From IMG/VR virus record IMGVR_UViG_3300048625_000166: 64,000 nt of DNA; one strand, 5' to 3'. The DNA comes from a virus (lineage: Duplodnaviria > Heunggongvirae > Uroviricota > Caudoviricetes). Within the stretch, counting starts at the first letter, position 1. Each line of letters opens with the position of its first letter. This document shows positions 35,863 to 46,063 of this stretch, piece after piece. The position numbers were made by a program, and so were the translations under genes. The notes beneath the pieces were generated by a model. The model worked only from the letters and a program-made list of their open reading frames with translations, searched no databases and was not told the DNA's origin.

Positions 35863-37439
35863 TTTGTTGTCTTTCTTAAACTTTTCTCAAACCATTCAGT
35901 TAGGTATGAGTTTTGACTAGTAACATTGTCCTCGTAGAACTCTTGTTCTGCGGCAACACGAATCATAGTGTATAACTCAGTGATGCGTTGTGGATGATCG
36001 AATCCTTGACGCACTTGCTTACGAAATACGCGAGTCAAGAACCAACGTTCAAATTTTGTCATACGTATTCCTTATTCAAACGTTCACGTGCGGCACTTGC
36101 GAATTCGCTGATGTTACCACACTTATCTTCCCAACGCAACAGATTTCGACAAGTGTAACCAATGTCACGCTTATTGTAGCAAACTGCTTCCTGATTTACT
36201 TCACCATTAACCAACACACGGCAGTGATAGTTGCCATTGATATTGCGAACAGTTACTTCATGTTCTACTGCACCAACGAGACAACGCTGGATGCGAATGA
36301 GTTGTTTATATCGTTCCATGTTATTCTCCAATGTACTCACGAACCCATTCAAACTTAGCTTCGCTAGCTTTGACCCATTTGAATTGTTCACGGCGTCTGT
36401 TAATCTTGTCAAAGTCGAAACATATAAAGATCCAACCTTTGTCCTCTGAGAACATGACGGTATCTTGGACTTTGACAATCTGTACGATTTTGTCTTTCAT
36501 CTTTGCTACAATCATCATTATGTTCTCCGGTTAATGCATGTATTATATAACCAATTCCATTTAATGTCAACCGAATCTTGCTTTGTCAGGAAAGAGTCGT
36601 CTTGCATCAATTCTAGCCTGTAGATAAGTTTCTACCACTTGAGTATCCATTTTCTTAAATCCAGATTTAAGCAAAAAGAATAATTCATCCTTCTCAGACT
36701 CTACAGTAACTGCGTGTACATCACCTTCGCTGATTTTGGCAACTGAGTTGCAAATAAATGTTATCTGCACTCCCAGTTCTCGTGTTAACACATCAGGTCC
36801 AGTCATGTCACCTGGGACATAATCATACTGATAGGTATTAGGAACGTCAACGTAGAATACGTAGCTCATGTGCGTTCTCGTTGTACTCGGCCTATACGTG
36901 CTGACTTGTTCCAGTCATACTTTACACCGTCAGGAGTCTTACCGTCTACAACAGAGTCAACTCCAAACATACCCACGATTTCAAAGTCCGGACCTGTGAT
37001 AGTCACAAACTCGTTCATCTTCTTTGCGTACTTCATAGCTTCGTCCAACGACAAAACTTCATGTTCTACACTCTTACCTTTTACTTTATACATTAAAGTC
37101 ATTTAAACTTATCCTTTTCAATCCATACTTGTTTGATATTTCTATGTGATCGGCAATTGCCTCTTTCTTTGTTTTATATCGTCCTAACACCGCACTCTCA
37201 CCATTACCATAAAAGATACAACTTTCATATGGGGCATACTTATACAAGTCGCCATCTAATTCAACTGTGCTTAGTGAGATATCAGCTGGGAACATCCAAA
37301 CATGATCATCGCTTACAATTTGCCAACGCTTGCTATGCATACTATTAAGTGTCACCAAGTTGTTGCGGACTACGCTTAGGGATGATAAGTCCGGATTCAA
37401 GTTCGATTCCATTAATTGTATGAGGCTCGTTTTCGTCAT
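35859..37439 (-). other. Run of small hypothetical CDS (35859-36062, about 36059-36318, 36321-36518, 36567-36869, 36866-37102, 37086-37439)
   Basis: Packed ORFs; promoter at 36542-36570. Confidence 0.55.
36542..36570 (-). promoter_or_regulatory. Early sigma70-type promoter
   Basis: TTGACA-17-TATAAT with GGAATTGG in the spacer. Confidence 0.75.
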
Positions 37440-37851
37440 AAGTCCATCCCAATGCTTTCATCATCTTGTGCTTTACTAGCAAGTTAGGACTGCGAAACAC
37501 TTCTGTGTCTTGAAATCCCATCATTACGCCAATCTCACAAACTGCGCCACTACGACACACACCGGCATGACAATGAACAATCACGTTCATGTGATTTTCT
37601 TGTGCATGTTGTAGCAATCGAACTAGTTCATCGGCTTGCTCTTGACTGCATCTCCATGCTTCGTCAAGTGAGTAATCATTTGCTTCAATATCAAGAAACT
37701 CAAACTGATGAACTTCTTTGAATTTGTACAAGGGAGTAGGAAATTCATAAGCAGGATCAACAATTTGAATCAGCATTGCATTGTCGCCAGGGTTGATATG
37801 AAACCCTTTCTTGATATCACTGAGTGATACGTTTTGAATCCACATTGTCAA
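37345..37851 (-). CDS. CX5R (dual-specificity/tyrosine) phosphatase-fold protein
   Basis: VHCHAGVCRSGAV, preceded by FLDIE acid loop. Confidence 0.85.
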   Translation of the reverse strand: MTMWIQNVSLSDIKKGFHINPGDNAMLIQIVDPAYEFPTPLYKFKEVHQFEFLDIEANDYSLDEAWRCSQEQADELVRLLQHAQENHMNVIVHCHAGVCRSGAVCEIGVMMGFQDTEVFRSPNLLVKHKMMKALGWTYDENEPHTINGIELESGLIIPKRSPQQLGDT

Positions 37852-38276
37852 TCCTCTCGAAACATTTTAATCATGGGTCCGTCAAGATAATCTCGACCTG
37901 GATCCATGTCACTGTAAACAGTCTTACTACCAAACTTCTTTTTCAATCGTTCATATTCAGCTAGTTCTTTGGCTTCTTTCGCCGCCTTGTCGGCTTTGTT
38001 TTTTGCTTTAGTTTTAGCTTCAACTGCGAGTCGTGCGTTATATTCTTTGTCAGTTTCTTCACGGCGTTCACGCAACTTTAATTCTTTGCCACCATCATAG
38101 CCGTAGTGTTCGATATCGAAATACACATCACGATTGCCCATTTCTTCTCGGAGTGCCTTCATGCGTTCGATGATTTCCTCAGGAGTTCTACCGTCAAACT
38201 CACAGAAGTCAACATACTCATTTGCTTCAACATCTAAAATTTTACGTTTGCTCATATTATCTCCAAAGTAAATCAA
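37848..38276 (-). CDS. Hypothetical protein
   Basis: 142-aa ORF. Confidence 0.6.
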   Translation of the reverse strand: MIYFGDNMSKRKILDVEANEYVDFCEFDGRTPEEIIERMKALREEMGNRDVYFDIEHYGYDGGKELKLRERREETDKEYNARLAVEAKTKAKNKADKAAKEAKELAEYERLKKKFGSKTVYSDMDPGRDYLDGPMIKMFRED

Positions 38277-38928
38277 AGTTGCCAGCTAGTACTTTAGTAG
38301 CATTAGCAACTTTACCTGTTAAGTGATCTTGAACTTTATCATCTTGGAAACGATATGTGCGAATCTTGTCACCGCGCATGCCAGAACCAACCTGAGTCTT
38401 TCTATCACTAGCTATTTCGTTATTGTACATCATTTGGTTATTGCTGTCAACACGTTCTTGTATTGCACTCAATGCTTCGTTATAGCTATTCTCACGGCTA
38501 CGACATTGAGCCGTTGCAACTACGCCGCTTGGGATGTGCGTGATTCTGCAACTGTTTTGATGCTTGTTACGATGTTGACCACCTGCACCAGTGCCACTAT
38601 ACCATTCGATTCGTAAATCTTTTTGTTGTATAGTTGTTGTGATTTTAGCAGGATCGATAACGGCAACTGTCACTGTGCTTGTATGCACTCGACCTTTGCG
38701 TTCTGTTGGCGGTACACGTTGTATTCTGTGTCCACCTGGCTCGTTGTATAAGCCGGATAAATCAGTACCCTCTATCTCTAGATGGATCTCGCCTTGATGC
38801 TCATTTATCAGGCGGGTAGTTCAGCCGAGCTTGGAAGCCATGCGAATATAAGACTTCGCTAAATCTTTTACAAACAACTTACTGTCATCGCCACCTTCTG
38901 CGGCTCTAATCTCAATTACACGTTTCAT
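38257..38928 (-). CDS. Class I peptide chain release factor (RF1-like, lacking domain 1) with an in-frame UGA at codon 36
   Basis: AAGGAG RBS; IEIRAAEGGDDSKLFVKDL...KLG*TTRL...EPGGHRIQRVPPTERKGRVHTS...GAGGQHRNK...RTYRF in one 224-codon frame. Confidence 0.85.
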
Positions 38929-38953
38929 GATATTCTCCTTTAATTGTGTTGAG

Positions 38954-38960
38954 TATTTAT
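38954..38960 (-). promoter_or_regulatory. Late promoter motif upstream of the release factor
   Basis: ATAAATA. Confidence 0.55.
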
Positions 38961-39393
38961 TATACACTATAAATCCGTATCTGGAAATAAGAATGGCCGG
39001 ACACTTCCACCACAGAAGCCCCGGCCTTAGTTGTTTACACTGTCTCACGTTATAGTTTCTGGAAACTACTATTCGTCAACCTAGGGCTTTGTCCGTATCC
39101 TGAAATTGGATCGTGTAGTAGTCCCTATGCACTAAACTACGTTGTGGTTGTAGTCAATACCTCACACATCATAACGACTGTGTGACGCCGGGTTTTAGGT
39201 TTGATATGTCACTAAATGCTCAATCCTGAGAAAGATTTTACGGCATGCCAGCATTTTTTACTGTGAACAGAAGGTGTCTCGGATACTATTTTAAACTTCT
39301 TCATATCAAATTAGGGGTTGAATGATTAGGCTGACTCCTGGGCGTCCCCTGGCTTTATTTAAAGTGACTCACACTCACCTAATCAATCAGTAG

Positions 39394-44320: not shown

Positions 44321-45198
44321 TGGAGCACTGAGAATACATGCTTACCGAGTAACACCTCAGACATTATTACAATCCTTGCGAGACTGCTTTCTTCTGACTT
44401 CCACTGCAACCTCTTGCGAGTATCACAGTCTGTTACCAACATCGCCGTTTTAAGTCAGGCATTAGACTTGACGCTGTATGCTATTCTACGCTTTCTATCC
44501 CGTTGACCTTTAGAGCCATTCACTACCGCTAAGTAGTTACGAAACTTCCTGCATAAACAGATTTCACCTTGCGAGTTACGTCTGACTGGATTATCTTGCG
44601 ACTCCAGTATTAGATGCTTTTCACATACAACCGAGACAGACTTTGCTTTTTTAATCGATAGAAGGGATCGAACCTTCAGCCGACTGCTTGAAAATGCAGT
44701 TGATCTACCATTGATCTATATCAACCTACTGTGATGTGCTGTCTCAGTTGCTTCATAATCTTTTGGACTACAAAATACAACACGCCACGTACCTTTTGTC
44801 TCGCGGACTACTCAGTCGTCTTTCACGATTAATGTCGGGTCTCGGCTTTCGCGTACCTCCATCAACCATTCAAACTGCATTACAACTCTTAGATGCGACT
44901 CCTCGAATCATAACACTACCCTTTCTCATACCAATTAACTGGACTGGTTTTGTCGTGAGGTCAGCACCACCTGTTACTCTCTAATGACTTGCGTTACCCT
45001 CGATATTATCTCAGGCGCTTAAGCCACTAATTCTTTCCACAACTTCCAGCGTCATTGTTATCACCACCGGTCTTATCAGTGATGAAACCCTCGCGGGTTT
45101 GAGCAGGCTTGCTTAGATGAACTATTTCTAGCGCGGGTCTGTAGGAGACTACCGCTTTGGGCCGATCACTCGGCTTATTCTAATGAGGCTAAGCCCCC
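44321..45198 (-). ncRNA. About 880-nt large structured RNA, GOLLD-like
   Basis: No credible CDS; many GNRA-capped hairpins (CTCGCAAGAG, CCGCGAGG, GCGAAAGC); 5' GGGGGC can pair with 3' GCTCC-A; located in a tRNA array; embedded tRNA-like domain. Confidence 0.6.
44653..44725 (-). ncRNA. tRNA-like domain embedded in the large RNA, 8-nt anticodon loop
   Basis: D arm GATC-AATGGTA-GATC, ACTGC-ATTTTCAA-GCAGT, T arm GAAGG-TTCGATC-CCTTC, no CCA. Confidence 0.7.
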
Positions 45199-45987: not shown

Positions 45988-46063
45988 TGGCATCCCGGGA
46001 GGGATTTGAACCCCCAACTTACGGTTTTGGAGACCGTTGCTCTGCCAATTGAACTACCGAGAT
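45988..46063 (-). tRNA. tRNA-Trp(CCA)
   Basis: Loop CTCCAAA, G73, CCA. Confidence 0.95.

Follow-up and report, generated by a model that had tools for sequence, protein, structure and literature searches.

The gene described here lies on the minus strand of a 64,000-nucleotide stretch (the window) of IMG/VR virus record IMGVR_UViG_3300048625_000166, the genome of a 364-kb freshwater phage (complete at 364,247 bp, with direct terminal repeats and 41% G+C) that encodes a shortened RF1-type translation-termination factor. Translated from position 38928 down to 38257, a single frame runs through 35 codons, a TGA, 187 further codons and a TAA, so that the whole gene (38257–38928) comprises 223 sense positions, with UGA as codon 36, followed by its stop. 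A preliminary description had joined a 35-residue and a 143-residue fragment into one frame interrupted by a single in-frame UGA, and the translation bears this out, except that the 143-residue piece, although in the same frame, is only the portion that follows an internal GTG of the 187-codon downstream part. Codons 1–35, the product if translation terminates at the UGA, occupy 38824–38928 and include EGGDD (38884–38898), the tip of the codon-recognition helix. The UGA itself, at 38821–38823, directly follows a GGC glycine codon and falls at the tryptophan of the RF1 'GW' motif; codons 37–223, which can be made only by recoding, span 38260–38820 and contain both the PPT tripeptide (residues 73–75, 38704–38712) and the GGQ motif (residues 116–118, 38575–38583), all on the minus strand. 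An AAGGAG Shine-Dalgarno sequence can be read 6 nt 5' of the ATG (38935–38940, minus strand), and upstream of the gene is a site that is promoter-like by consensus match only (TTTCCA-17-TATAAT, 10/12; 38959–38987, minus strand).

The gene is located directly downstream of a tRNA array and a DUF2828/Ro60-like gene, in the same orientation, and is the only one in the genome with an RF-1 domain. Within it lies a second, near-consensus promoter-like site (TTGACA-17-TACAAT, 11/12; 38422–38450, minus strand). The ATG of the next gene (38255–38253, minus strand) begins 1 nt past the release-factor TAA, and its GGAGA Shine-Dalgarno sequence overlaps the last release-factor codons (38253–38264, minus strand); its translation may be coupled to those ribosomes that got past the UGA. 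This junction arrangement is absent from one relative, L081. Two genes downstream of the release factor is a phosphatase gene of dual-specificity or PTP type (37345–37851, minus strand), assigned from an HCxxGxxRS motif and weak matches to Pfam DSPc / PTP-SAK.

With the TGA read as tryptophan, the product matches Pfam PCRF (PF03462; 82.7 bits, profile positions 103–194 of 194) and RF-1 (PF00472; 73.2 bits), and among the NCBIfam models RF1 scores 197–202 bits, RF2 119 and PrfH 45. The cut-offs of the RF1 equivalog models (TIGR00019 / NF001859) stand at 400–423 bits, and the phage protein falls below them because the first ~110 profile positions are absent, the match beginning at profile position 107–115; it has neither the full-length RF1 architecture with domain 1 nor an equivalog score. 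Solved RF1 chains align to it only from about residue 87–112 on, so domain 1 is absent, and they do so with 143 bits as against 94 bits for RF2 chains. The phage product is thus an RF1-type, domain-1-less protein with a PxT rather than an SPF tripeptide, nearer to RF1 than to RF2, in agreement with the preliminary description. A rapid maximum-likelihood tree with a bacterial RF2 as its root, in which many branches are weakly supported, sets the short phage forms apart from bacterial RF1 (SH-aLRT 95). By the tripeptide rule for RF1 and RF2, factors with PxT recognize UAA and UAG only, and the PPT motif accordingly predicts a product that would release at UAA and UAG and would lack UGA recognition. 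The placement of the UGA at the RF1 tryptophan also stands: its counterpart in Thermotoga RF1 is the W of 'KGW', and of 61 full-length bacterial RF1 representatives 53 (87%) have W in this column and 42 have G in the column before it.

The preliminary description had offered a way to refute itself, namely by asking whether orthologs keep the TGA with purifying selection on both sides of it, and they do. A scan of IMG/VR returned 258 relatives, with TGA at codon 36 in 80 of 80 fetched loci, and members at 46–65% identity from a second scan keep it too. Taken together, 100 of 100 distinct orthologous nucleotide sequences, a set spanning 46–93% protein identity, have TGA at codon 36, and PPT and GGQ are present in every one. 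Pooled Nei-Gojobori estimates of dN/dS are 0.107 for codons 1–35 and 0.098 for the downstream part, from which it follows that both parts are translated in one frame; synonymous differences among the orthologs are near saturation, and retention of the TGA in all 100 sequences despite this excludes chance. The codon before the stop is GGC in 70 of the 100, GGT in 22, GGA in 4 and another in 4. The nucleotide that follows the TGA is A in 73 sequences, G in 24 and C in 3, which qualifies the earlier suggestion that the leak arises from a UGA-A context: an A does follow in most members, but the constraint is better matched by a covarying stem-loop on the 3' side. Indeed, synonymous diversity falls from ~0.8 to ~0.3 at codons 36–42 and dips a second time at codons 54–58, and the two dips match the two arms of the stem.

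The interruption is hidden in protein databases: the gene has been annotated either as truncated or in code 4, which leaves the stop invisible at the protein level. In a large protein collection the full-length entries of this family carry W at residue 36 where the underlying DNA reads TGA, the W having arisen because gene callers applied code 4 to short contigs. Dozens of database entries look uninterrupted, and longer contigs yield N-terminally truncated entries of 150–187 aa. DNA searches of a collection of GenBank phages returned no close relatives, and a search of phage proteins gave only matches at 40% identity or less.

The stem-loop occupies 38752–38813 (minus strand), with its 5' arm at 38794–38813, its 3' arm at 38752–38771, 18 consensus pairs and a 22-nt apical part, and it is separated from the UGA by the 7-nt spacer ACUACCC (38814–38820, minus strand), whose synonymous sites are conserved. 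RNAalifold applied to the whole codon alignment gave almost no structure; the helix, which joins alignment columns 20–39 with 62–81, emerged from per-sequence partition functions and pair counting. Over 68 distinct sequences 87.4% of its cells are paired, compared with 31–49% when the partners are slid, nine pairs have changed on both sides, compensatory changes are seen in 58 cells where shuffles give 14.8 +/- 4.8 (0/500), and the covariation score reaches 0.238 where shuffles give 0.161, all of these statistics being inflated to the extent that the helix was derived from and counted on the same, related sequences. The folding energy of the 80 nt past the UGA averages -25.6 kcal/mol, whereas other windows of the same genes average -15.5. 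The hairpin of the window itself is weaker than that of the family (15 of 18 pairs, -17.6 kcal/mol, z -1.25), and distant members have hairpins of other sequence that begin 4–7 nt past the TGA. A start a few nucleotides past the stop, here 7 nt, is the usual geometry of a recoding stimulator, and the family thus pairs a stop that is conserved with a structure that covaries and begins shortly after it, the arrangement expected of read-through with a 3' stimulator. The stem-loop probably raises the fraction of ribosomes that read through.

In some relatives the gate has been altered. Two members nested inside the clade with TGA at codon 36 have a sense codon near that position: L087 has TGG at codon 36 and TAG at 40, and L200 has TGG at codon 37 and TGA at 41, so that in both the stop has been shifted by four codons and not lost. 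The genes of a second clade (L091-L095, L097, L113) are likewise interrupted in frame by TGA, in one case TAG, but at about codons 45–50, where the uninterrupted relative L199 has Phe. In three huge phages (630–640 kb), one TGA or two fall within codons 44–54. In a sister clade of about 20 contigs (L096, L098-L108, L111, L112, L231-L238; e.g. L098 around 1400–1510), an N-terminal part of ~37 codons in frame 0 ends with GGAGG, 3 nt and CUU UGA C, and the remainder of the gene continues in the +1 frame; the spacing is that of prfB and a Leu codon stands at the Trp position. The tripeptide of these genes varies (PPT, PPN, PET, PQN, PPG). The preliminary description had likened the UGA of the window to the prfB frameshift sensor, and the comparison is strengthened by this true prfB-type +1 cassette at the equivalent position of a clade that, in the tree with its many weakly supported branches, is the neighbour of the one with TGA at codon 36. 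L240, with CTC TGA C in frame, looks like a halfway stage between read-through and frameshifting. The gate can also be UAG, as CUU UAG C in place of CUU UGA C in L108 and as an in-frame TAG in L087 and L092, and a UAG gate could be read by the RF1-type factor itself, which would amount to direct autoregulation; these three relatives fit such a scheme better than they fit RF2 sensing. Three relatives are uninterrupted (L109, L199, L202), and the gate is therefore not obligatory for a mini RF1-type protein. Finally, an AT-rich relative at 60% identity (L083, 27% G+C, of the group L083-L086; release-factor gene at L083:702-1370) carries a further TGA in place of the Arg in the conserved RTYRF motif, and ORF coverage of its flanks is 0.72 under code 11 and 0.95 with TGA as sense, such that these flanks look TGA-recoded.

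The phage of the window does not. Among its 459 ORFs of at least 100 aa, TAA ends 226, TGA 195 and TAG 38, and those called under code 11 span 85% of the genome; since TGA ends 195 of the 459 it is a normal stop, and this together with the code 11 coverage rules out phage-wide TGA recoding. According to ARAGORN the array contains 45 tRNAs, including tRNA-Trp(CCA), and a tRNA(CUA) lies apart from it; over the complete genome the program finds neither a UCA anticodon nor tRNA-Sec. In these respects – an ordinary UGA, no tRNA with a UCA anticodon, a phage-encoded tRNA-Trp – the preliminary description was accurate. The tRNA-Trp(CCA) gene (45988–46063, minus strand) has a wild-type D stem with U11-G24, which rules out a suppressor of the Hirsh type, and the tRNA is the likely near-cognate reader of the UGA at codon 36. 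In five large relatives, a search for tRNA(UCA) by an anticodon-loop/T-loop pattern, of limited sensitivity, gave matches at control level only, and ARAGORN was negative there as well. A hexamer-based search for lone stops with coding sequence to either side returned the release-factor gene and two other TGA cases; the latter have low-complexity hydrophobic translations and are probably off-frame artefacts. The release factor is the genome's only convincing in-frame TGA gene.

Several other elements of the translation apparatus were seen in this genome. The tRNA(CUA) is of amber-suppressor type and lies outside the window (G000 C1:363408-363482, L204:1909-1980; Rfam tRNA 54.9 bits), in a genome in which TAG is the rarest stop (38/459), and a like tRNA(CUA) occurs in a 424-kb relative (G003; L219, L220); it would compete at UAG with an RF1-type factor. 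A permuted tmRNA is found near the genome end (G000 C1:362011-362432, L204:512-933; Rfam RF04321, 113.7 bits, gathering score 47), and in the window there is a tRNA-like gene (44652–44726, minus strand) whose anticodon loop is 8 nt long (ARAGORN 'tttc') and whose acceptor stem has 8 bp.

In the model that we favour, to which we would assign a probability of roughly 0.6, the gene specifies a working class I factor of RF1 type without domain 1, and its synthesis is gated by programmed read-through of the UGA at codon 36. Most ribosomes reaching this codon would be terminated by host RF2 and would release the 35-residue peptide; in the remaining fraction tRNA-Trp(CCA), from the host or from the phage, would decode the UGA, restoring the tryptophan and yielding the full 223-residue factor. 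Two things speak for insertion of Trp: the column is one of conserved Trp, and UGA is known to be leaky towards tRNA-Trp. The A1 protein of phage Q-beta is made in this way, UGA being read as Trp by tRNA-Trp. In B. subtilis, where UGA is leaky and read as Trp, prfB mutations lift UGA read-through from 6% to 19–54% (PMC7918605). With the UGA in the A site, the stem-loop would lie at the mRNA entry channel and could boost the share of ribosomes that read through. RF2 and tRNA-Trp would race for the codon, and it follows from such a race that output should climb when termination by RF2 is slow; the full protein would be expected only at low RF2 or high tRNA-Trp, as the preliminary description had also proposed. 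The product would then terminate at UAA and UAG, and by lifting the load of UAA from RF2 could close a negative feedback loop; TAA ends 49% of the long ORFs of the phage. An RF1-type factor cannot itself relieve slow termination at UGA, and the feedback needs the extra assumption that sparing RF2 from UAA duty matters.

What the read-through and frameshift forms share is slow termination at a stop specific to one release factor, nearly always UGA. A sensor of RF2 activity is favoured over a timer based on tRNA-Trp because the frameshift form uses no tRNA-Trp. It is tempting to go further and to propose that large phages have a family of mini RF1-type factors in which every gene would use a release-factor-specific stop as a sensor of termination efficiency, the site having been remodelled repeatedly, into UGA read-through stimulated by a hairpin, into a prfB-type +1 frameshift or into a gate with UAG. 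The phage would thereby gain homeostatic control of the balance between RF1-type and RF2-type termination in the cell that it infects. We hold this wider proposal tentatively, at a little short of even odds.

prfB is the single textbook case of release-factor autoregulation by recoding, and the phage device looks like its read-through counterpart. Both have a conserved early in-frame UGA in a class I release-factor gene with selection on the parts to either side, and in both the yield is, or here would be, tied to the speed of termination. The differences are equally clear: the Shine-Dalgarno-like element, CUU UGA C and the +1 shift belong to the sister clade only, whereas the window has GGC UGA ACU in an unbroken frame, with no frame change, no CUU slippery codon and no Shine-Dalgarno stimulator, and the presumptive stimulator is instead a 3' hairpin. 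Moreover, as the phage product is of RF1 type, its gate codon would be read by a different factor, an arrangement better described as cross-regulation. A 2025 survey of more than 12,000 bacterial genomes notes that programmed recoding is established for prfB and not for prfA, and it found none in prfA (PMC12421855), and our search of the literature found no description of such recoding for RF1-type genes. Phage genes for RF1 and RF2 are themselves known (PMC7162821; 10.1101/2021.08.26.457843; PMC10746230), and no in-frame stop is described there. The 'code change' modules of Jade phages and the release-factor genes of huge phages resemble the present case in that class I factors are found among translation genes (10.1101/2021.08.26.457843; PMC7162821), but for the Jade module a standard code is stated, with no in-frame stop described in the release factor, and the phage considered here is not TGA-recoded and has no tRNA(UCA). 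Domain 1 is also missing from PrfH, and ArfB consists of the GGQ domain alone; the phage factor differs from ArfB in having an intact codon-recognition domain with PxT. A PrfH/RtcB rescue module was considered and rejected, as the match to TIGR03072 is 45.5 bits against a cut-off of 166.65 and covers the GGQ domain only, and the whole genome contains no RtcB.

Alphaviruses and related viruses reportedly use programmed stop-codon read-through with a 3' RNA structure, and the phage gene shares with viral read-through a conserved and, by inference, leaky stop, after which come a coding sequence under selection and, within a few nucleotides, an RNA structure. Viral read-through, however, lengthens at the C terminus a protein that works without the extension, whereas the pre-stop product of the phage gene is a 35-residue fragment, and the inserted residue would matter in the phage factor because the position is that of a conserved Trp. 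No read-through stimulated by a hairpin on the 3' side is known to us from bacteria or phages.

Other explanations of the interrupted frame deserve consideration. That the gene is broken, wrongly assembled, or split with a reinitiated C-terminal part has nothing in its favour beyond the presence of the stop codon, and we regard it as hardly credible: the stop is kept in 100 independent sequences with dN/dS ~0.1 on both sides, an essential recognition element lies within the 35 N-terminal residues, and there is no conserved in-frame start after the UGA at which a separate protein might begin, codons 40–43 being CTG, ATA, AAT and GAG. Insertion of selenocysteine, with the hairpin shortly 3' of the in-frame UGA serving as a SECIS element, seems no more credible: Rfam gives no match at E values up to 10, ARAGORN finds no tRNA-Sec, 87% of the bacterial RF1 representatives have a structural Trp at the position, and relatives swap the device for UAG or for a frameshift. 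True autoregulation, in which the mini factor would read UGA despite its PPT and close a loop as in prfB, has the attraction of a single logic for the UGA-gated relatives and the UAG-gated ones (L087, L092, L108), and the tripeptide variants of the frameshift clade (PPN, PQN, PET, PPG) hint at altered recognition there. It nevertheless strikes us as very improbable, since PPT is present in all 100 members of the clade, the flanking Q..HTS residues are RF1-like, and the established tripeptide rule predicts recognition of UAA and UAG only.

Somewhat more must be conceded to two further explanations. The gene might be activated at a set stage by a UGA suppressor or an altered tRNA of the phage or its host, in the manner of the 'code change' model for recoded phages. 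The related phage Atu_ph07 has a tRNA(UCA) (PMC6102473), RF1 goes together with a suppressor tRNA in the TGA-recoded Jade phages (10.1101/2021.08.26.457843), the gene is just downstream of the tRNA array, and the AT-rich relative L083 bears signs of TGA recoding. But ARAGORN finds no tRNA(UCA) in the complete genome, none turned up in the five large relatives when the pattern search, of limited sensitivity, was followed by ARAGORN, TGA ends 42% of the long ORFs of the phage, and the frameshifting sister clade never decodes UGA at all, so we judge a timed switch to be rather improbable. The alternative that we take most seriously, while still thinking it unlikely, is that nothing is sensed and that the UGA and the hairpin do no more than hold production at a fixed, low level because too much of the factor does harm. 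Overexpression of a release factor lowers fitness in B. subtilis (PMC12421855), the strong Shine-Dalgarno sequence of the gene makes a translational brake plausible, and all of the conservation data fit a fixed limit on dose as well as they fit a sensor. On the other hand, a weak Shine-Dalgarno sequence or promoter would achieve the same yield more cheaply, the stop moves yet is never lost inside the clade, and the sister clade uses the prfB cassette, a known sensor of concentration.

At least two mechanistic forms in which recoding would control this RF1-type family occur at one homologous site, and the interconversion of read-through and +1 frameshifting is therefore open to direct study. 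If hairpin-stimulated read-through of the UGA is indeed how the full-length factor is made, no RF1-type gene before this one would have had a programmed recoding switch, and no read-through before this one, among bacteria and their phages, a stimulatory hairpin. The device suggests that large phages, alongside their tRNA arrays, tmRNA and suppressor tRNA, monitor and adjust the capacity for termination.
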